This document shows, piece by piece, positions 257-16,107 of a stretch of DNA of 38,108 nucleotides. Source of the DNA: Bdellovibrionota bacterium (GTDB taxonomy: Bacteria; Bdellovibrionota_C; UBA2361; JBIKUX01); contig JBIKUX010000025.1 in assembly GCA_044347345.1 (NCBI GenBank), positions 1 through 38,108 of the forward strand, written 5' to 3'. The stretch's first letter is position 1. Each line of letters opens with the position of its first letter. The notes beneath the pieces were generated by a model. The model was not told the DNA's origin, did no database searches, and worked only from the letters and a program-made list of their open reading frames with translations. The translations under genes and the position numbers were made by a program.

Positions 257-667
257 TTAACTAAGGAGTATGTTACGAAAGGTACGCATAAACTTTGATC
301 TAGGAATCAATTCATTAAACAGCGACGAGTTACCAAAAGCCTCTAATAAGTCAACTCTTATATGCGGATAAAACCCTATAATTAGCTTTGCTTTGGAATC
401 AAAAGATTCTTTAGCTAATTTGGTAATTTCCTCAATAGAGCCATAGTCAGCCAAATCTATAACTACAACAGCATTATATAATAATTGCTGGCGACTCTCC
501 TCACTTTTCAATCTATTTAATCCAATAAGCTCACCTGACAACCTTTCCACTTCGCCACGGATAAATTCACGGCTAGCCAAATTTCTTACAAAGGCAACTA
601 CACAGGGCTTTGCACCAGACTTTTCATCGGGCTTTAAACGAAGATTACTGTCAGACTCGGGACTCAA
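257..667 (-). CDS. Stand-alone degenerate receiver (CheY-like) domain protein
   Basis: The pattern VVAFV...VVVIDL...IIGFYPH...LIPRSKF follows the receiver fold but lacks the acidic pocket after beta1 and the canonical K-P. Its TTG start overlaps the TGA stop of the upstream regulator (TTGA, 664-667). Confidence 0.6.
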   Translation of the reverse strand: MSPESDSNLRLKPDEKSGAKPCVVAFVRNLASREFIRGEVERLSGELIGLNRLKSEESRQQLLYNAVVVIDLADYGSIEEITKLAKESFDSKAKLIIGFYPHIRVDLLEAFGNSSLFNELIPRSKFMRTFRNILLS

Positions 668-2166
668 ATTTCAAACTCCTGAACTTTAGCAATAAGAGTA
701 GAGCGTGATATCCCGAGGATCCTCGCGGCTTCGCTCTTATTTCCATTAGTGCGCTTTAAAGCATTACGAATCATAACTTGCTCAACAATCTTGAATGCAT
801 CTTGCAAATTTTCTACTCCACTTAAAAGTCTATCAGAAGATAGTGATGGTAAATTATGTGTTAAACTATTCGGTAATTCTTCGATTGTTTGAGAATAACT
901 GCGCGTTTGATTCTTTAGTGCGACTGCTGGATTTACACTAATTGAAAAGTGACTTGGTTCGAGGATTGCGCTCCTCTCACCCGCAATTATTAAGGCTCGC
1001 TCAAGCTCATTTTGTAACTCTCTAACATTTCCGGGCCATGAATGTTGCAGTATCAAATCCATTGCAGACAAAGAAATCTCTACTGCGCCCAACTTACGCC
1101 GCTTCAAGATATTTTTTAGGATAAGTTGAGCAAGTAGTTGAATATCTGAGCCACGCTCTCTTAAAGGTGGAAGTGTAATTGGAACTACTGATAATCGATA
1201 AAATAAATCAGCACGAAACTCTCCTCTTTCAATCATCTCCTCCAAAGGTCGATGAGTAGCTGCTACAATACGAACATCTACGTGACGCTCTCGAGTATCT
1301 CCTACCGGAATAAACGAGCCTTCTTGTACCACCCTTAAAAGCTTTGCTTGTAGCGGGAGTGACAGCTCACCAACTTCATCAAGAAATAGAGTGCCCTTAT
1401 CAGCTACTTGAAATAATCCGGCTTTATCACGAACAGCTCCAGTGAATGCACCACGCACATGACCAAAAAGAGCCGATTCAAGAAGCTGCTCTTGAAAGGC
1501 AGCACAGTTTTGCACAATCAGAGGTTGTGAACTTCTGGCACTCCTATTATGAATCTCTTTCGCAACCAATTCCTTTCCTGTTCCAGACTCTCCGCGAATT
1601 AGTACCGGAACATCAGCAACTGCCACTCTTTCAATTAGGGTAAAGACTTCCCGCATCGAAGAACTATTACCAATGAGCCCTCCGAATTGAGCAGATTCCT
1701 CTTGCCAAGACTGCACGTGACTACGCCAAGCCTCAGTTTCAGCCTTAGCAGATGATAACTCCTGATAAAGAGAGTGAATCCTAAGAGCAGCTCGTACTCT
1801 GGCTAGGAGCTCTAGTTCACGACAAGGCTTAATTAAGTAATCATCAGCCCCTGCATCAAAGCCAGCTACAATATCATCGAGAGTGTCACGCCCTGTAAGC
1901 AGAATAGTCGGTATATACCGAAAAAGTGGATCTTTCTTGAGCATTGACGCCGTCTCAAGTCCTCCAAGACCGGGCATTGCTACATCTAAAATACAGAGAT
2001 CAGGGAGAGATTGCCGCTGAGCAACTAAGCTATGAAGCACTTTGATAACTTCATCCCCACCACTACACTGCGACGCTTGATAACCGGCATCTGTTAATAC
2101 TGCGACGATACTCTCACGAATATCGTCGTCATCATCAGCAAGCAAAATGTGCTTTAAAACTGACAT
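664..2166 (-). CDS. Sigma54-dependent response regulator (NtrC/AtoC family: receiver, AAA+ and Fis-type HTH)
   Basis: Receiver motifs ILLADDD, ILDVAMP and IKP; Walker A GESGTGKE; GAFTGA loop; Walker B LFLDEVGE; FRADLFYRL; WPGNVRELQN; C-terminal GNKSEAARILGISRSTL. Confidence 0.95.
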   Translation of the reverse strand: MSVLKHILLADDDDDIRESIVAVLTDAGYQASQCSGGDEVIKVLHSLVAQRQSLPDLCILDVAMPGLGGLETASMLKKDPLFRYIPTILLTGRDTLDDIVAGFDAGADDYLIKPCRELELLARVRAALRIHSLYQELSSAKAETEAWRSHVQSWQEESAQFGGLIGNSSSMREVFTLIERVAVADVPVLIRGESGTGKELVAKEIHNRSARSSQPLIVQNCAAFQEQLLESALFGHVRGAFTGAVRDKAGLFQVADKGTLFLDEVGELSLPLQAKLLRVVQEGSFIPVGDTRERHVDVRIVAATHRPLEEMIERGEFRADLFYRLSVVPITLPPLRERGSDIQLLAQLILKNILKRRKLGAVEISLSAMDLILQHSWPGNVRELQNELERALIIAGERSAILEPSHFSISVNPAVALKNQTRSYSQTIEELPNSLTHNLPSLSSDRLLSGVENLQDAFKIVEQVMIRNALKRTNGNKSEAARILGISRSTLIAKVQEFEI

Positions 2167-2184: not shown

Positions 2185-3780
2185 TTATCCTTTCATCATA
2201 TCCAAAAATTCTTGATTACTCTTGGTACCATCCATCTTACTTAGTAACCACTCCATAGCTTTCTCTGGCGAGTCGTTCGATAAAAGTTTTCTGAGAAGCC
2301 AAATCTTTTGCAATACTTCAGGATTAATCAGTAATTCTTCCTTACGAGTTTGAGATTTTAATATATCCATGGCCGGAAATATCCGTTTCTCAGAGAGCTT
2401 GCGGTCAAGCACAAGCTCCATGTTTCCAGTACCTTTAAACTCCTCAAATATCACCTCATCCATGCGGGATCCGGTATCAATTAGAGCCGTCCCAATGATG
2501 GTTAAACTTCCGCCCTCTTCACAATTTCGAGCCGCACCGAAAAATCTCTTCGGTTTATGCAAAGCATTAGAATCAACTCCTCCAGACAGAATCTTCCCTG
2601 AGGGGGGCACGACAGTGTTATAAGCTCGAGCTAAACGAGTAATAGAATCGAGAAGAATAACTACATCCCTTTTATGCTCTACAAGCCTTTTGGCCTTTTC
2701 AATAACCATTTCTGCTACCTGAACATGTCGCGTAGCTGGTTCATCGAAAGTCGAACTAACTACCTCACCATCAACAGACCGCAACATGTCAGTCACTTCT
2801 TCTGGTCGCTCGTCTATAAGCAACACAATTAAAATAACCTCCTTGTGGTTCTCTGTAATAGCGTTAGCTATATTCTGAAGAAGAATAGTTTTGCCAGCTT
2901 TAGGTGGCGCAACTATTAGGGCTCTTTGGCCTTTACCTATCGGAGAGAAAAGGTCGATAATTCTTGATGACATGCCCCCAGTGCGACTCTCCAGCTTGAG
3001 CTTAGTACGCGGGTAATCAGCAGTCAGGTTATCGAAGTGAACCTTTGTTTTTAGAGTTTCAAGGGTATCGTGATTAACTGAGTTAACTTTAAGGAGAGCA
3101 AAGTAACGCTCTCCTTCTTTTTCTCGAGGTGGACGAATCTGTCCCTCTATGGTGTCCCCTGTTTTCAAACCAAAACGACGAATCTGTGCCGGAGAGACAT
3201 AAATATCATCAGAGCCAGGAAGGTAATTAGAATCAGGTGCCCTTAAAAATCCAAATCCATCAGGCAAACACTCTAATACCCCTTCTCCGTAAACATTACC
3301 ATTAGAAGCAGTTTGAGAAGTAAGAATAGAGAATATCAGATCCTGCTTTCGCATATTACTGACACCCTCAAGATTAAACTCTTGAGATAGCTTTACCAAA
3401 TCTTCTACCTTCATCCTCTTCAGCTCGTTGAGATTCATCTCACGACGATCACGAAACGAAACTAATGGCTCAACATGCGGCCGACGCGATTGCACATCAG
3501 GCAGACTTTTGAGTTCACTTGTACTTTTACTTTCAGGAATAATGTTATCCCGACTAGCATCGTTTTTCACATCTACAAACGGTAATCCACTAGCCTCAGG
3601 TGAGGTTGTTTTAATTTCAGAAAGTACTTCTCTTTCCTGGGCATTATTAGAGGATAATTCATCAATTTTTCGAGAGCTAGACTCTTCAACAGTAGATAAT
3701 GCTACCTTTCTACGGCGACGATTCACACCGGTGGCTGGAGAAGTCTCAGAATCTTTCATACTCGCTTGTCCTACACTCAT
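2185..3780 (-). CDS. rho: Transcription termination factor Rho with a ~114-aa N-terminal extension
   Basis: [67 protein letters not shown] lies just upstream of the ATG at 3780; the conserved core begins at MNLNELK (ATG 3438). Confidence 0.98.
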
Positions 3781-4374
3781 GGATTCCTATTTTTAAAAGA
3801 CATTAAACAAAAGACGGATATTAATTTTTGATTAAGGACTTGCCTGGCTCGAATTTTACAACCCCCCTCTGGCCGTAATTTCTCTAACCATAATTATCGA
3901 AACAAGGCTCAAACAAATCGCGCTTCGTGATTTTAAATAAAGATTTCTGTTATCAAAGAATGATCTACCACTAATAGCAAAACTGTAATAATTTCTAGGT
4001 TTTCAGTGCGATAAAAGTTAATCTAGCCAGAATTATACTTTAATGACGCGTAATAAATTAAAACGGTTCTATATTTGTTAATTAAATAAAGGTTTATATA
4101 ATTTTTAATTTAACTTCTTTGCTTACCTAAACCAGGTAACCACAAAACTATAACACAATAAGGTTAAACCAAAAATACTAATTATAAAATTTTTGACTAA
4201 GATTAAAAGTTTTTTTTCTGACTTAATGTCGTTAAACTTACCTAATTTACCAAAAGTCTTACAATCTAACTTTTTGTTTAATTAATGCAATTCAACTTGA
4301 AGTCTAGCTTTAAGGTTTTAACTCAACTCACAAGACGAAACTGCTTAAAATTGGAACACATATTACACCATTAA

Positions 4375-4404
4375 AAGGTAGCATTAAATATTCAGTATGG
4401 TCAA
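4375..4404 (-). promoter_or_regulatory. Candidate sigma70 promoter for rho
   Basis: The minus strand reads TTGACC-N18-TACCTT with TGn directly before the -10 element (extended -10). Confidence 0.45.
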
Positions 4405-4860
4405 GCCACTTTAACCTTTTAGGCTGATGAAATGTATTCTATAGAACGACTCGATTCTGCTTTGTTTTCCTTAGGCTATATTCCTCCCATAAATATGCTA
4501 CGGCTAACAAACTATGAGTATTTTTTACTTTTCTTACTTCAATCTAGTCGCAAGATTAAAATTAAATGAAATTATACTCGGAAAACTCGGAGAGACATCA
4601 TTAATTCAATAAATGATGGTGTACCACGAAACTTTGTTACGTGGAGTAACAACTCACAACTCAAATCTATCTAGAAGAAAAGATTAGCTTTCTTAGAGTT
4701 TAGTTGTAAAACTGAACTCAAGGAGTTAGCAATAAGTGCCAACATCCCTTGGAGGAGAAACAAAGGTATTAAAAGCTCTTTGTATAACAGCAACTATGGT
4801 TATCTAGACAAAATTCACTTTTTCTTTACGGTAAACATTACCTAATACGGAAGTTTAAAC

Positions 4861-6924
4861 CTAATTCTTAAAACTAGGACCTCTAGAGATTAAGGATAAA
4901 ACTCGAGAAGTTTCTAGCTTTTCTGCTTGCGCTATCAACGCAGCGGTACGGTCGATTTTAACTTGTGCTACAATTAAACGTGTAGACTCTTCAGCCACAT
5001 CAACTGATCTGATCTTAGAGTATGCTTCAGTATATAGATTAGCGTTACGATCAACAAAATTTAATGCAAAACCAAGACGACTACGAGAGGATTCCACACG
5101 AGATTGGCCTTGAGAGATAGTATCAAACATCCTGTCAACAACTAAACCAGACTCAGTAGCTTTTGTAGTGCTAGAAAGATCTAAATAATTAAGTCTAAGG
5201 CCATTGTTGGAAGTAACTTCATAGTAATATGTAGTAGTAGTGCCAGGTGTTCCTGGAGTGCCAGGGGTTCCTGGAGTGCCAGGGGTTCCTGGAGTGCCAT
5301 TACCAAGCATCACTGAGATTTTACCGGACTCAGTAATACTTAAGACGTCATTTATATTGTCACCATTTAAGTCAAGAACTTGAGTTCCCCGAGAACTTAC
5401 GGCCGATTCCCCATCAGAAATGCTAATCGCTGCCTTAAATGTGCCGTTTCCATTACCCCAGTTAATGCTTACTTTGCCACCGGCGCTACCTAAACCCACC
5501 AGAACATCTAGAAATCCATCTTTATCTAAGTCTACTAATTGGCCGTTTGTAGCTTGACCCATTGCTGCGAAACTAGCAGTATTTGTATAACTAAATGTCC
5601 CATTTCCATTTCCAAGAGCTACAACTAAATAATTTGTTCCTGAAACATAATCCATTTTATCATCATCGTTGACATCACCCGCCTCTACCCACCATCCACC
5701 ATCATGATTAAAACTTTGGGAAGCCGCAAAAGATGTGTTAAAGGGGGACGAAAAACTTGATGTATTTAATGAAAGCCGAGCACCAACACTACCGGTTCCT
5801 ACTCCGAGAAAATCTGGCTTACCATCTCCGTTAAAATCGGCTACCGCAAATTCGCGATTTGCTGCGTTCGCTACTGATACCTGAGCCTTAAATGTTCCGT
5901 TGCCATTGCCGAGTGAGTACCATATGGGGCCCCCTGTGGCCTGAATTTTATCAAGATATGTGTCACCATTAATATCAACTAATTCGATGTTATCACCTGT
6001 AGAATTTCCCCATGAATGAGAAGGTAAGGTATCAGCAAAAGTACCATTGCCATTACCAAGAAGTACTTTACTTTGCCCGCCATCAGTAATAATATCTAAA
6101 TTATTATCTCCGTTAAGATCTAAAACTACTCCAGATTGGCCGCTTTGAGATGTTTGTAATGTAATTGCACTCTTAAAAGTTCCATTTCCGTTACCTTGGT
6201 GGTACACGATAGCGTCACCAAAAACTACTAAGTCAATAAAACCGTCTTCATTAAAGTCTCCTCCTTTAATCTCAGGGTCTGAGCTTGCACTAGCTGTGCT
6301 AACAGTTGTAGTTACTATCGGCGCCTTATAAGTTCGATCAGATCCCCCCGGAGTTCCAGGCGTGCCCGGAGTTCCAGGCGTGCCCGGAGTTCCAGGATTA
6401 GTAATAGTTACTGAAACTGTAACAGTATAACTGCCACTACCTTTGGGCAGGAACGCTGGAACAATACCATGAATTCCAGCACTGCTCTGTGAATAAATCT
6501 CTGTAACGCTTGAATTTATAAGATTCATCCCATTATACTTGGTAGAATCAACGACTCGATTAAATTCATCAACTAAAGCATTAGCTTCAGACTGGAGCGC
6601 ATCTCTTTGAGAAGAAGATAGGGTTGATTGCTTAGCCTGTTCAGTTAACTCTTTAAGCCGTGAGTTTAGGTAACCAAGATGGTTTATTGACGATGAGGCT
6701 ATATTGAGGGCACTAATAGTATCATTTAGGTTTAGTTTACCTCGAATAGCTAGGCTTCTATCATTGTCAAGTCTGAGTTGAAGATCTAAACCAGCTGGAT
6801 CATCGACTGAGCTATTTATGCGAAGTCCGGAGCTAAGACGTTGGGAAGCGGTGGAATAACTTTGCGAGCCACGAGCTAAAGATCTTAAAAGTGGGAGTAA
6901 AGACGGCCTAATTGACGAAACCAC
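4861..6924 (-). CDS. Divergent flagellin with a central seven-repeat FG-GAP/VCBS domain flanked by (PGT)n linkers
   Basis: Flagellin N-domain (QRLSSGLRINSSVDDPAGL, RLKELTEQA, QRDALQSE, STKYNGMNLI) and C-domain (YSKIRSVDVAEE, LIAQA, VLSLI). Seven DxN/DxDG-type loops, most followed by GNGNGTF turns, lie between them. Confidence 0.9.
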   Translation of the reverse strand: MVSSIRPSLLPLLRSLARGSQSYSTASQRLSSGLRINSSVDDPAGLDLQLRLDNDRSLAIRGKLNLNDTISALNIASSSINHLGYLNSRLKELTEQAKQSTLSSSQRDALQSEANALVDEFNRVVDSTKYNGMNLINSSVTEIYSQSSAGIHGIVPAFLPKGSGSYTVTVSVTITNPGTPGTPGTPGTPGTPGGSDRTYKAPIVTTTVSTASASSDPEIKGGDFNEDGFIDLVVFGDAIVYHQGNGNGTFKSAITLQTSQSGQSGVVLDLNGDNNLDIITDGGQSKVLLGNGNGTFADTLPSHSWGNSTGDNIELVDINGDTYLDKIQATGGPIWYSLGNGNGTFKAQVSVANAANREFAVADFNGDGKPDFLGVGTGSVGARLSLNTSSFSSPFNTSFAASQSFNHDGGWWVEAGDVNDDDKMDYVSGTNYLVVALGNGNGTFSYTNTASFAAMGQATNGQLVDLDKDGFLDVLVGLGSAGGKVSINWGNGNGTFKAAISISDGESAVSSRGTQVLDLNGDNINDVLSITESGKISVMLGNGTPGTPGTPGTPGTPGTPGTTTTYYYEVTSNNGLRLNYLDLSSTTKATESGLVVDRMFDTISQGQSRVESSRSRLGFALNFVDRNANLYTEAYSKIRSVDVAEESTRLIVAQVKIDRTAALIAQAEKLETSRVLSLISRGPSFKN
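5239..5298. repeat. 18-bp tandem repeat (~3.3 copies) encoding GT(PGT)6, C-terminal linker of the flagellin insert
   Basis: Plus-strand unit AGTGCCAGG(G/T)GTTCCTGG at 5239, 5257 and 5275, plus a partial copy at 5293. Confidence 0.95.
6347..6396. repeat. 18-bp tandem repeat (~2.8 copies) encoding (PGT)5PG, N-terminal linker of the flagellin insert
   Basis: Plus-strand unit CCCGGAGTTCCAGGCGTG at 6347 and 6365, plus a partial copy at 6383. Confidence 0.95.
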
Positions 6925-7543
6925 TCAACAACACCTTTTTTTACAAAAATATCAAAGCCTTGCTCGACGAAGTTGCTTTTCACTGTCGATTTAAAAAATA
7001 GCCAAAAAACCTTGAGGCTGATTTTAGCTTTTTCTCTATTTGTGTAGTCGGTGTAACGACTGAAAATCTGAACAAATTAACCCGTTTTTCTCTCTCTTTA
7101 CTAGTTGCAAAAAGTAACTCTTTTAATCTGTATACCTTACACTGTACCGAGTAGTTGAGGAGGTTATTCTCCACCAGTTGTAAGGGAAGCAGAGATGTGT
7201 TCTTCGTGTTAAAAACTGGGGTTCTTTACGAAGAAAAGTTTTTTTAATTAACGATGTCAGAGTAATTGAGTTGATGCGAGAGGAAAGTAAAAAACAACAA
7301 TGTCTAGTTATATGAACTAATCACCATTTAATCAAACTACATACTGTTACTAATACCTGCTCAAAAAATACTCTTTGTTATTTTACTCTACAAGAAAAGA
7401 GCAAATATCTTAAACTACAACATGATATACTTCTATGAATAACCCGATACTCTCATACTTAGTAGTATTTATGATCTCCATGATTGTTAAAAATTTATTC
7501 GTAACTAAGTTACAACGCTCGTACCGCTAAACTCATCACTAAC

Positions 7544-8392
7544 TTATAAACGATCTACTATTTTTTTAGCCGCAACCTGTCGGATATAGTTTGGAGAAAA
7601 TTCACAATACTCATTTATACCAATTTTTCTTCCAGGTTGAGAGCAAATTGGATGAAGAAGATTTAAAGCGCTACCGAAATACTTTTGCACTACAGCATTT
7701 TTATTACTGCCTATGCTTGCTGTTATGAGCTCATAACTAGGTAAGTCTTTGGCTATAATCAAATATGGTGAGCTATTTAAATCGCCAACCAAGCCAAACC
7801 TACTCAGTTCAACTAATGAGACAAATTCAGATAAAGAATAGATTGTGCTCGACAATATGGTAGGCTCTGAAAGCACAGATAACTTATCCACATTTGAATC
7901 TAATTGTTCAGATGTATCTAACTGTTTATCTGACTCTAAAGGTACAAATGCTCTTACAGTAAACAATTCTCCTCGCCGAGCATCACTAATTACTAAGACC
8001 TTTGTTACGGTTGGAGATGCTATACTAGGAATGTAATTAACCGGCTCTATGGCTTGAGCTGCTATGGCTTCAAGAAGATCTATCTCAACAACTCGTATAG
8101 GGGTACCATAAATAAACCCACGTACAAATGCATAGCCAAGTCGCAATCCGGTAAAAGAGCCCGGACCACGAGCCAAACGAATTTCCCTCACTTGACTCAC
8201 AGAAGCTCCAAAAGAATCGAGTAATTCTTTTATGCCTCTAGAAAGCTCATCTTCATGACAATAATGATCGTCACTAATCCGTAAAACAACTGAACCTATG
8301 TTCACTTGTTCATCATTAATAATTGGCGCAGCACATAGAGAAAAATTAGGAGAACTAGTATCTATCGCTATAACAAACTGTAAATCACTCAC
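7544..8392 (-). CDS. tsaB: tRNA threonylcarbamoyladenosine biosynthesis protein TsaB
   Basis: IAIDTSS, RGPGSFTGLRLG, DARRGELF; GTGA overlap with the rseP stop. Confidence 0.9.
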   Translation of the reverse strand: MSDLQFVIAIDTSSPNFSLCAAPIINDEQVNIGSVVLRISDDHYCHEDELSRGIKELLDSFGASVSQVREIRLARGPGSFTGLRLGYAFVRGFIYGTPIRVVEIDLLEAIAAQAIEPVNYIPSIASPTVTKVLVISDARRGELFTVRAFVPLESDKQLDTSEQLDSNVDKLSVLSEPTILSSTIYSLSEFVSLVELSRFGLVGDLNSSPYLIIAKDLPSYELITASIGSNKNAVVQKYFGSALNLLHPICSQPGRKIGINEYCEFSPNYIRQVAAKKIVDRL

Positions 8393-9534
8393 CCCACAAG
8401 CCGCCCGATATCATTGAACATAGCAAAAAGCATAAGCGCAAATAATATAAACATTCCTAGTTGTTGCGCTCGTTCGATTACTCTTACACTTAGAGTTGTA
8501 CGAAAAATAGCCTCAATGGTAAAAAACAGCAGATGACCGCCATCAAGAATGGGAATCGGCAGTAGATTTAAAATAGCAAGGCTCACACTCAGCAAAACCA
8601 TATAGCTAAAAACATACTGAGCTCCTCTTTGAGCTGATTGAGCGGCTTGCTGAAGAATGAGAATGGGACCACCGATATTTTTAGCCGAAATAACTCCTGA
8701 GACCATTCCCCACAGACCTCGCAGGGTCATAAAGGATATATGGTATACCTGAAGCACACCATCTCCTATTGCATCGCTAAAACCGACGTCAGTGCGCTTA
8801 ACAGCGGGGACAATGCCCACTTTAAATCTTTTCTCAGGAGCTCTGCCTTCGATGGCAGCTAACTCGGTATCCTCTGAATCGGCTGTAACTGAGATATTTT
8901 CCACCTTACCGTCTCTAACTAAAGAGATGGATATATTAGCAGAGGATGAATTCCCGATCCTGTCAGCCATTTCCTGCCAAGAGGTGACAGCTACACCATT
9001 TACACTTTGTACAACATCACCAGTTCTCAAACCGGCTCTATCAGCAGGAAACCCCGGAATTACTTCACCAATTATTGGCTCTTTTAATGAATCAACCCGT
9101 CCAAAAATAGCAACCGAAGCAACTGCCAAAACTATCGCAAAACCGAAATTAAACATTGGTCCAGCAAGTACTATACTGCTACGCTGAAGATAACTTTTGG
9201 TAAGAAACCATCTGCTCTTATCCTGCAAAATCTCACGCTCTTCTGGCGAGAGCTCATGTAGCTCTGACTCATCAATAGTTGAAAACCGTGGGTCATCGCC
9301 CACCATACGAACAAAACCACCTAGAGGTATAATTCTTATCGAATATAAGGTTTCACCAATCCTTTTCGACCAAAGCCGCTTACCAAACCCTATGGCAAAC
9401 TCCACTACTCCTACACCACACCATTTAGCCACTAAAAAGTGACCCAGCTCATGAACAAAGATTAGTACCGCAAGTACTAAAAGTGCTGATACGAAATTTA
9501 ACAATGAACCCGCGCCTAACAGGACTACATCCAT
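8389..9534 (-). CDS. rseP: RIP metalloprotease RseP (M50, one PDZ domain)
   Basis: HELGH, PLGGFVRM, AGP, PDZ segment PADRAGLRTGD, NLLPIPILDGGH; follows dxr. Confidence 0.96.
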   Translation of the reverse strand: MDVVLLGAGSLLNFVSALLVLAVLIFVHELGHFLVAKWCGVGVVEFAIGFGKRLWSKRIGETLYSIRIIPLGGFVRMVGDDPRFSTIDESELHELSPEEREILQDKSRWFLTKSYLQRSSIVLAGPMFNFGFAIVLAVASVAIFGRVDSLKEPIIGEVIPGFPADRAGLRTGDVVQSVNGVAVTSWQEMADRIGNSSSANISISLVRDGKVENISVTADSEDTELAAIEGRAPEKRFKVGIVPAVKRTDVGFSDAIGDGVLQVYHISFMTLRGLWGMVSGVISAKNIGGPILILQQAAQSAQRGAQYVFSYMVLLSVSLAILNLLPIPILDGGHLLFFTIEAIFRTTLSVRVIERAQQLGMFILFALMLFAMFNDIGRLVG

Positions 9535-14889: not shown

Positions 14890-16107
14890 CTAAATTGATA
14901 CGGTAATAACAGACTTGCCTTCATCATTTAAGGCTTGTCCTGCTCCACTTGGTTCTTGACCTGGCTCAACCGATGAATTTCCCATCTTTACGTCACCACC
15001 ACCGGAACTATTCCTAGCTTTACCGCCACTACTACCATGGCCTCGTCTACCGTGACTACCTCGAGTCGAAACTTCAGTGATTTTACCTGTCGCGTCAACA
15101 TCACTTTCTTCTCTCCTAGGGTTTTCACGCTTGTAAGACTCGTACCCCTCAAGACCCTCTAAAACAGCATCTGCAGCAGATGCAACGAGCAAATCTATCG
15201 CTCTAGTAGAATCATCATTACACGGAATCGCATATTCAACAGTGCTAGGGTCAACATTCGTATCAACAAGAGCAATGACAGCCACTCCGAGTCTCTTAGC
15301 TTCAGCCACTGCAATGTGCTCCTTGTTTACATCTATAACGAAAAGCACGTCTGGTACCCGACGCATATTTCGAATACCACCAATGTTTCCCTCAAGAGTC
15401 TCAAGCTGACGCGTAATGGTTAAACGCTCTTTCTTGTTTAACTTAACTTCACTGTCACCGCTATTTGCTTGATTAAGCAACTCTTCTAAACGCTTCATTC
15501 GGTCAATGGACTTCCGAATTGTTGAAAAATTAGTTAGTGTGCCACCCAGCCATCTTCTTGTAGTAAAATAGGATCCACAGCGCTTAGCATGACGAGCTAC
15601 TGAGGCGCGAGCTTGCTGCTTAGTTCCTACAAATAAAAGAGTTCCACCACGAGAAACAGAATCCACTATAACCCGTCGAGCTTCCGCCCAGCGCTGAATT
15701 GTGATGTCGAGGTTTATTATGTGGATACCCTTTCGCTCAGTAAAAATGAACGGTAGCATCTTCGGATTCCATTTATCAGCTTGGTGCCCAAAGTGCGCAC
15801 CCGCGTTCATTAGACTCTTGACAGTCACAGGCTCAGGTACGTACTCACCTAGCTCTAATTCTGACATATGTTCTGATGTAATAACTGGATAGTGCTTCTT
15901 GTGCCGACGAGGCTGAGTGAATGTTGGCGAATCCGTAGTTAAAGAGGAAGAACCCGTACTGCTATTCTCATCGAAACTAACATCAAAAGGCTCAACCTCT
16001 GAAAGGTCTCTTCTTGCGACTTTATTACCAATCGCGGGTCTGTCGTTTGAAGCTTGTTCAAGGTCTACAGCTTTTTCAATATCAGAATAATCATCAGTTG
16101 CAGTCAT
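14890..16107 (-). CDS. rpsB: 30S ribosomal protein S2 with long N- and C-terminal extensions
   Basis: AGAHFGHQ, WNPKM, LFVGTK, RWLGGTLTN, AVAEA, VDTN, IPCNDD. The start is ambiguous (M1 or M81), but the leader RNA position favours M1. Confidence 0.96.
   Translation of the reverse strand: MTATDDYSDIEKAVDLEQASNDRPAIGNKVARRDLSEVEPFDVSFDENSSTGSSSLTTDSPTFTQPRRHKKHYPVITSEHMSELELGEYVPEPVTVKSLMNAGAHFGHQADKWNPKMLPFIFTERKGIHIINLDITIQRWAEARRVIVDSVSRGGTLLFVGTKQQARASVARHAKRCGSYFTTRRWLGGTLTNFSTIRKSIDRMKRLEELLNQANSGDSEVKLNKKERLTITRQLETLEGNIGGIRNMRRVPDVLFVIDVNKEHIAVAEAKRLGVAVIALVDTNVDPSTVEYAIPCNDDSTRAIDLLVASAADAVLEGLEGYESYKRENPRREESDVDATGKITEVSTRGSHGRRGHGSSGGKARNSSGGGDVKMGNSSVEPGQEPSGAGQALNDEGKSVITVSI

Follow-up and report, generated by a model that had tools for sequence, protein, structure and literature searches.

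A flagellin with a predicted seven-bladed, calcium-type beta-propeller: one divergent copy of a family widespread in Bdellovibrionota

The outer domains of flagellin are where the flagellum meets its surroundings and, to our knowledge, almost none of them has a demonstrated activity, the protease of flagellinolysin aside. What, then, is a complete binding-type domain doing inside a flagellin? The question is raised by a gene at positions 4861-6924 of contig JBIKUX010000025.1 from a Bdellovibrionota bacterium (assembly GCA_044347345.1); "the window" below means the whole stretch analysed, 38,108 nucleotides (nt). A preliminary description made from the sequence alone had read the gene product as a flagellin whose terminal domains enclose a seven-bladed FG-GAP/VCBS beta-propeller, a candidate for display on the filament for recognition. 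We find that this propeller-flagellin architecture is real, confidently modelled, widespread in uncultured freshwater bacteria and barely noted in print.

The gene is a single uninterrupted open reading frame (ORF) on the minus strand, encoding 687 amino acids in a frame of 2064 nt without internal stops. A longer N-terminus is excluded because an in-frame TGA (6925-6927) directly precedes the GTG start. The gene and its domains are laid out as follows.

4861..6924, minus strand: whole ORF of the propeller-flagellin, 687 amino acids; GTG start at 6922-6924, stop codon 4861-4863 included.
6932..6937, minus strand: AAGGTG, likely ribosome-binding site, 7 nt before the GTG, as read from the sequence.
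6508..6888, minus strand: Flagellin_N region, residues 13-139, N-terminal helices of D0/D1 (Pfam match and modelled helices).
5284..6336, minus strand: seven-bladed beta-propeller of FG-GAP or integrin-alpha type, residues 197-547 (seven FG-GAP_3 stretches, model and VIA-align superposition).
4891..5139, minus strand: Flagellin_C region, residues 596-678, C-terminal helices of D1/D0 (Pfam match and modelled helices).

In a scan with the Pfam hidden Markov models, Flagellin_N scored 72.5 bits (cut-off 26.6) at residues 13-139 and Flagellin_C 32.3 bits (cut-off 23) at residues 596-678. FG-GAP_3 was found in seven stretches with 129.6 bits (cut-off 26.9, E 6.3e-38), and the Pfam family FG-GAP with 38.4 bits (cut-off 22.1). 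The cut-offs of the curated NCBIfam flagellin subfamilies (PRK12802, PRK08869, LafA, FliC/FljB, Hag, FlaA/B), which are 282 bits or higher, were not reached. By architecture the protein is a flagellin that lies outside every curated NCBIfam subfamily. Identity with the hook-filament junction protein FlgL was considered and rejected: TIGR02550 gave 49.7 bits against a cut-off of 127.2, flagellin models score higher, and a real flgK-flgL pair is present on another contig (C3) of the same genome.

All seven loops of the propeller that had been quoted are present, and each satisfies the pattern D-x-[DN]-x-D-x-x-x-D.

6232..6258, minus strand: calcium-type loop 1, DFNEDGFID, residues 223-231; D223 and D231 are invariant in 40 sequences.
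6094..6120, minus strand: calcium-type loop 2, DLNGDNNLD, residues 269-277.
5950..5976, minus strand: calcium-type loop 3, DINGDTYLD, residues 317-325.
5812..5838, minus strand: calcium-type loop 4, DFNGDGKPD, residues 363-371, in the blade without a GNGNGTF turn.
5650..5676, minus strand: calcium-type loop 5, DVNDDDKMD, residues 417-425.
5506..5532, minus strand: calcium-type loop 6, DLDKDGFLD, residues 465-473.
5347..5373, minus strand: calcium-type loop 7, DLNGDNIND, residues 518-526.

An AlphaFold2 model of the protein was built from a 40-row alignment of the family described below. Its mean predicted local distance difference test (pLDDT) is 78 and its predicted template-modelling score (pTM) 0.55. 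Helices are modelled at residues 6-31, 43-97, 104-127, 586-638 and 643-680, in many blocks at pLDDT 85-96, and strands run across residues 203-539, with the propeller block mostly at pLDDT 80-95. Two stretches, residues 161-195 and 552-574, fall below 50. When the model was compared with the PDB by Foldseek, the top matches were solved flagellar filaments (9n59_A, E 1.7e-12; 7sn4_A, E 2.5e-12), at low TM-scores (0.25-0.3) because the outer domains differ. The next matches were seven-bladed propellers, namely the lectin PVL (2bwr_A; target-normalised TM 0.56, root-mean-square deviation (rmsd) 4.7 Å, 23% identity), AAL2, CRTAC1, the EPTP domain of LGI1 and integrin alpha-V. VIA-align superposed model residues 197-547 on the entire propeller of integrin alpha-IIb (residues 32-485) with Z 30.0 and an rmsd of 2.6 Å over 317 residues, and about 50 integrin, LGI1 and dehydratase propellers followed at Z 28-30. 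In the model, a closed seven-bladed propeller of the integrin-alpha type with seven intact calcium-type loops sits between the D0/D1 helices.

The preliminary description was accurate at this level. The flagellin domains it had placed at the two ends are both above their Pfam cut-offs, and the fold matches to filaments agree. The GNGNGTF turn occurs on five blades and GNGT closes the last, as quoted; the turn of blade 4 is degenerate, and the GNGT of blade 7 passes directly into a linker. The limits given for the domain, 5299-6346 or residues ~194-542, match the modelled propeller, and in the model the ring of seven blades closes as predicted.

The architecture is not confined to this protein. 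Among the best 120 protein-database matches listed, 45 combine Flagellin_N, Flagellin_C and FG-GAP. These are ~600-660 amino acids long, apart from one of 886, and 29-34% identical to the query across 61-99% of its length; the other listed matches are ordinary FG-GAP/VCBS proteins in which the propeller region alone was matched. The alignment of 40 rows comprises 38 of the 45 relatives and, from the window's genome, the window protein and a further copy; seven relatives with 61-73% coverage were omitted. None of the calcium-loop aspartates varies among the 40 aligned members, and their flagellin motifs are canonical. Against a profile of the family, in which it is itself one of the 40 rows, the window protein scores 564.6 bits (E 7.2e-170, positions 10-621 of 622).

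This profile was also run against 41 genomes of the window's order, and full-length copies were found in many of them. One genome (G009) holds 18 intact copies by a hand count of rows, several of them in tandem arrays with spacers of 8-13 nt.

C33:32962-40377 of G009: tandem array of four genes.
C33:54734-58379 of G009: tandem array of two genes.
C45:28536-34059 of G009: tandem array of three genes.
C4:22367-26060 of G009: tandem array of two genes.

Across the phylum, with at most 10 candidates scored per genome, a full-length match (E <= 1e-120) was obtained in 56 of 124 genomes, or 31 of 73 if the high-quality ones alone are counted, and in 39 of 64 genera. The 79 best family loci all come from metagenome-assembled genomes (MAGs), of which 49 are labelled Bdellovibrionales, Bdellovibrionota or Oligoflexia and four Planctomycetota, while the rest carry generic labels. 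The four Planctomycetota-labelled members (L023, L026, L046 and L086) belong to Bythopirellula, Pirellulales and Planctomycetota records. In a tree of the cores, the partner of L023 comes from a genome belonging to the window's order; two others, L026 and L046, are nested among copies from generic "bacterium" MAGs, in a clade of mostly Bdellovibrionota and same-order members. These copies could be the result of horizontal transfer or of mis-binning. For the propeller insertion, a single origin was not demonstrated: the tree built by a quick method from the D0/D1 cores of 81 long and 8 short rows needs at least 3-4 label changes, with weak support and too few short rows.

Comparison of family members revealed how unevenly they vary. 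Tandem paralogues within single MAGs are 88-92% identical in their D0/D1 columns, with 0.065-0.116 non-synonymous substitutions per site (dN); the same pairs are 32-36% identical in their propeller columns, with a dN of 0.66-0.81. We report dN and amino-acid identity without omega because the synonymous rate (dS) is saturated (at least 1, often not computable). Mean column entropy follows the same division, with 1.42 bits in the N-terminal core, 1.73 bits in the C-terminal core and 2.36 bits in the propeller. Conservation within the propeller is limited to the calcium loops and GNGxGTF turns, between which entropy is near maximal, and the alignment and entropy analysis of the family found no conserved surface patch on it. 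Judged from these sequences, the paralogues keep the core nearly constant and vary the propeller.

One feature is peculiar to the window copy. Its propeller is joined to the core by Pro-Gly-Thr repeats on both sides.

6347..6396, minus strand: N-side linker, (Pro-Gly-Thr)5; 18-nt tandem repeat, 2.8 copies, 100% matches; within the pLDDT <50 stretch 161-195.
5239..5299, minus strand: C-side linker, (Gly-Thr-Pro)6; separate 18-nt tandem repeat, 3.4 copies, 97% matches; pLDDT <50 at 552-574.

The sequence of the N-side linker is NPGTPGTPGTPGTPGTPGG, and that of the C-side linker is GNGTPGTPGTPGTPGTPGTPGTTTT. Linkers of (Pro-Gly-Thr)5-6 on both sides of the propeller occur in one of 80 distinct long family ORFs, the window copy, and residues 181-206 and 545-572 of the window protein have no counterpart in the family alignment. 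Beta-prone stretches, YTVTVSVTIT and TTTTYYYEVT, lie outside the linkers. At the DNA level the two arrays are at most 80% identical and differ in their codons, so that neither is a copy of the other. They are two repeats that expanded independently, yet the peptide they encode is the same and matched in length. A collagen triple helix was rejected as an explanation (Pfam Collagen 17.8 bits against 27.2; five to six triplets each, with the strands antiparallel), and so was excision of the propeller by recombination between the linkers, since the arrays are at most 80% identical and no joints were seen in environmental contigs.

The genome to which the window belongs (2.53 Mb, 95.8% complete) has flagellar export and assembly genes. 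It contains nine matches to Flagellin_N: five intact short flagellins of 266-287 amino acids, a second propeller-flagellin of 636 amino acids on contig C3, the window copy, FlgL, and a decayed propeller copy on contig C63. Contig C3 also carries flgI, a rod-binding gene, flgN, flgK and flgL beside a FliI-like ATPase, and its propeller-flagellin lies ~6 kb from this flgI-flgL cluster. The decayed copy (C63 ~59169-60300, plus strand, outside the window) retains a canonical N-terminal core and two blades, and is interrupted by two in-frame stops, one of them inside a calcium loop. We regard it as evidence of birth-and-death turnover in the propeller-flagellin family. There is one FliS in the genome, and there are two genes for the cap protein FliD. 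The FliD paralogues lie ~2 kb apart on contig C32 (46542-47213 and 49367-50056; L107 and L108; frames of 487 and 472 amino acids). That the two caps serve two kinds of flagellin is speculation.

The single FliS was modelled in complex with residues 575-687 of the window protein. The complex scored 0.84, against 0.08 for the best of three controls. The mark used for such models is reached by 58 of 80 solved complexes and by 2 of 110 mismatched pairs, and is a rough one here as a custom alignment was used. The runs share at least 90% of their contacts, the partner has a pLDDT of at least 61, and the interface comprises residues 636-679. FliS-flagellin complexes have already been solved, and the predictor may therefore have reproduced them; the pass shows likeness to them, not binding.

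The reading that we favour, with a probability of about 0.5, is that of a modular flagellin that is exported and docked in the filament and that carries its propeller as a variable, multivalent surface module. As the protein is without a Sec-type start, we propose that the unfolded chain leaves the cell through the flagellar type III export channel, with FliS as the chaperone of its C-terminus. The core helices would dock in the filament, where the protein would probably be a minor or alternative subunit among the five short flagellins that are intact, and the propeller would fold outside the cell, around calcium. In integrin propellers, the lower face carries the 1-2 (calcium) and 3-4 (FG-GAP) loops; ligands are bound at the upper face, which consists of the 2-3 and 4-1 loops. 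Both linkers depart from the propeller at the last blade's 3-4 turn, on the face with the conserved calcium and FG-GAP loops, and the variable 4-1 and 2-3 loops would thus be directed away from the filament axis. In the window copy, the two matched linkers may act as a two-stranded stalk that holds the propeller out, off the core. The likeliest role of such a module would be ligand binding or antigenic variation.

If the protein is in the filament, the flagellum would become a multivalent calcium-dependent binding surface, which bears on the attachment of freshwater bacteria to prey and particles, and the family would be a natural scaffold for the display of a folded domain of ~38 kDa. A well-understood binding fold, that of integrin and lectin propellers, is fused to flagellin in about half of the searched genomes of the phylum.

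Several observations weigh against filament display by the window copy. None of the 23 listed NCBIfam flagellar models reaches its cut-off (best 92.4 bits against 332), and the Flagellin_N score of 72.5 bits compares with 107-135 bits in the paralogues. Its D0/D1 core is 27-36% identical to the 79 other long members (median 32%, against 48% for random family pairs), and its branch in the core tree is 1.51 changes per column long, against a median of 0.32. By these sequence measures it has the most divergent core of the family, and with this core and its long branch it may therefore no longer co-polymerise. The gene sits among housekeeping rather than flagellar genes, and no convincing sigma-28 promoter of the E. 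coli-type consensus was found for it, the best match having four mismatches. Contigs from RNA libraries, described below, are compatible with its transcription and no proof of it, as such libraries can contain DNA. The outward direction of the variable face would follow from the topology of integrins, not from a filament model; calcium and ligand binding by the propeller are likewise proposed for a family known from sequences and models alone. Finally, a sheath, if present in this lineage as it is in Bdellovibrio bacteriovorus, the single well-studied relative within the phylum, would hide the propeller.

A rival reading is that the protein is exported but does not polymerise. The flagellar gate would then be a secretion route, and the product a soluble or loosely attached calcium-propeller, for which Campylobacter FlaC is the closest analogy. 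We consider this unlikely overall, but a serious rival for the window copy. Here the core is the most divergent of the family and the propeller has the usual degree of conservation (29% identity, against a typical 32%). The C-terminus, the modelled docking site of FliS, is kept, the gene lies outside any flagellar cluster, and the long flexible linkers are unique to one of 80 copies. However, both Flagellin_N and Flagellin_C pass their cut-offs, the core helices are modelled with high pLDDT (85-96 in many blocks), and the other members share a canonical and strongly conserved core, which fits polymerisation. The present data do not tell release from incorporation. If the protein is not in the filament, the family would represent a large new class of substrates secreted via the flagellar export gate.

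To about the same degree we doubt that the propeller is a purely structural outer domain, one that is part of the filament, binds nothing, and thickens or stiffens it, alters its hydrodynamics or fills the space under a sheath. Differences between the paralogues would in that case stem from weak constraint, or from evasion of phages and grazers, instead of ligand choice. The conserved positions of the propeller are its fold-determining calcium loops and GNGxGTF turns, with no conserved surface patch found beside them, and a fold shared with binding modules does not prove a shared function. Many flagellin outer domains are dispensable for motility and without a known ligand, according to a survey of such domains (PMC11532411), and the flagellum of B. 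bacteriovorus is described as sheathed (PMC2791853). Nevertheless, up to 18 copies with near-identical cores and very different propellers would be costly if they were filler, and the best-matching solved FG-GAP propellers (integrins, PVL, AAL2, LGI1) are binding modules.

A more far-reaching proposal, which seems to us somewhat less probable than either of these alternatives, extends filament display to a variable receptor repertoire. An interchangeable core would present from a few to at least 18 different calcium-propellers per genome, so that the flagellum becomes a programmable adhesive or sensory organelle. By switching or mixing copies, the cell could coat its filament with different multivalent faces for the recognition of prey, particles or surfaces; an alternative use would be evasion of flagellotropic phages. 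The window copy would be the most derived form, and its 18-nt linker arrays could change length by slippage.

It is very improbable that the window copy is a redundant paralogue on its way to a pseudogene and functionless at present: its long branch and low core identity, the already decayed copy on contig C63 (two blades, two in-frame stops) and the copies with a TAA stop that two relatives each carry would fit this, but its own frame of 2064 nt is open, all seven calcium loops are intact, the model is confident throughout the propeller, each linker is a near-perfect in-frame 18-nt repeat, and identical contigs occur in RNA libraries.

Returning to the propeller-flagellin as a proposed modular filament protein, comparison with known systems shows what it shares and where it departs from them. 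The canonical flagellins among the matches (Salmonella FliC, 1ucu and 9gnz; E. coli O157:H7, 7sn4; Azotobacter vinelandii, 9n59; Geovibrio thiophilus, 9au6; Foldseek E 1.7e-12 to 2.7e-11) share the terminal D0/D1 core, and their variable region is likewise inserted in the D1 hairpin. In contrast to their Ig-like or beta-folium D2/D3 domains, the outer region of the window protein is one calcium-loop beta-propeller of 350 residues. Integrin alpha chains (alpha-IIb, 3nid and 9e8a; alpha-V; alpha-5), PVL (2bwr) and AAL2 (4tqj) likewise form a closed ring of seven FG-GAP blades with calcium-type hairpin loops, at 13-23% sequence identity to the window propeller; for alpha-IIb the superpositions reach Z 28-30 with an rmsd of 2.6-3.0 Å over 310-318 residues. 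There are three or four such loops in integrins and two in PVL, whereas the window propeller has a complete one in all seven blades, and it has neither a beta-subunit partner nor a thigh domain.

The closest precedent for a working module in a flagellin is flagellinolysin, FliA(H), of Clostridium haemolyticum (PMC5595980). It is likewise a flagellin with a complete functional domain borrowed from non-flagellar proteins, and the filament displays this domain thousands of times over. The inserted domain is a zinc metallopeptidase, with polymerisation and activity demonstrated by experiment (PMC5595980), whereas the insert of the window protein is a predicted non-enzymatic fold of the binding type. 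The same authors counted 61 domain types in flagellin hypervariable regions, with FG-GAP outside the top ten that they name (Eckhard et al. 2017, PMC5595980). B. bacteriovorus, of the same phylum as the window genome, is described as having one membrane-sheathed flagellum and six flagellins, FliC1-FliC6, of 29-31 kDa (Iida et al. 2009, PMC2791853). It is thus a multi-flagellin organism like the window genome with its five intact flagellins of 266-287 amino acids; its flagellins, as characterised there, are without an outer domain and lie under the sheath (PMC2791853), whereas the propeller-flagellins are additional genes of about twice that size.

The preliminary description knew of no characterised example and guessed that unannotated homologues exist. 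The guess is borne out by a wide margin, as the architecture search across databases and genomes finds many. Judged from titles and abstracts, none of the papers found by full-text searches treats a flagellin with an FG-GAP or propeller architecture, so that the first statement stands as far as characterisation is concerned; the architecture itself may in part be described already, an outer-domain cluster of "WD40-repeats" being listed in PMC11532411. In that survey, 16,948 AlphaFold models of flagellins were sorted into 682 outer-domain clusters, and one sentence mentions "the WD40-repeats in cluster #55" (Fields et al. 2024, PMC11532411), a beta-propeller fold carried by the outer part of flagellin. 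The passage notes non-flagellin cellular homologues and suggests co-option (PMC11532411); its text on cluster #55 gives neither FG-GAP or calcium loops nor taxonomy, copy numbers or a test. Possibly this cluster is the propeller-flagellin family described here.

The stretch, or part of it, was recovered in 23 sequencing runs from 20 metagenome studies of lakes and freshwater; four runs possibly represent the source sample. Four of the 23 runs are metatranscriptome libraries from one study, and their contigs cover the gene without a difference.

4784..7167, no strand assigned: zero-difference contigs from four metatranscriptome libraries; the contigs break at both linker repeats.

Contigs from the RNA libraries also cover rho and parts of other genes, and in two runs they extend to 4350/4351, ~570 nt upstream of the rho start codon. 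The depths of these libraries cannot rank genes, and the contig gaps at 7473-8400 and over most of 4351-4784 are no evidence for RNA over DNA.

For the search for sigma-28 promoters, the 200 nt ahead of each of 78 long and 8 short family genes were scanned with the E. coli-type consensus, TAAA-N14-16-GCCGATAA. Matches with at most 3 mismatches in 12 positions were found for 33 of the 78 long genes, compared with 69 of 390 shuffles. GCCGAT occurs upstream of 17 long family genes, in several cases with TTAAG ~15 nt before it. This pattern is suggestive of a promoter for part of the family and decides nothing for the window gene. Scans for sigma-70 promoters and terminators yielded no usable prediction for the minus strand around the gene, and an Rfam scan of the window gave no matches.

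Upstream of the gene lie the housekeeping genes frr, pyrH, uppS, cdsA, dxr, rseP and a tsaB-like gene, and downstream of it rho and a sigma-54 activator. No orthologue or syntenic counterpart of the window copy was found among seven copies from the loci of five relatives, all of which are 27-30% identical to it. The spacer of 620 nt ahead of the flagellin gene contains an ORF of 64 amino acids without a Pfam match (6980-7174, minus strand), into which the RNA-library contigs extend as far as 7167 and which may simply be 5' leader. The spacer of ~1 kb between rho and the flagellin gene is AT-rich (GC 0.31) and has no ORF of 60 or more amino acids.

The Rho protein (window 2185-3780, minus strand) has 531 amino acids, with ~118 residues ahead of its Rho_N domain. 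Its close relatives mostly have 417-418 amino acids and cover 79% of it, while one relative of 510 amino acids covers 99%. Among the 120 matches listed for Rho, eight carry an organism name: six are MAGs of Bdellovibrionota, Oligoflexia or "Deltaproteobacteria", and two are from Pseudomonadota and SAR324, with no cultured organism among them. Directly downstream of rho is a sigma-54 activator of the NtrC type (664-2166, minus strand) with a receiver domain, an AAA+ domain and a Fis-type helix-turn-helix; regulators of this kind govern flagellar genes in some bacteria. Further along the window (14890-16107, minus strand), the frame for ribosomal protein S2 spans 405 amino acids, of which residues 99-318 form the S2 domain, so that either the protein has N- and C-terminal extensions or its true start lies further in.

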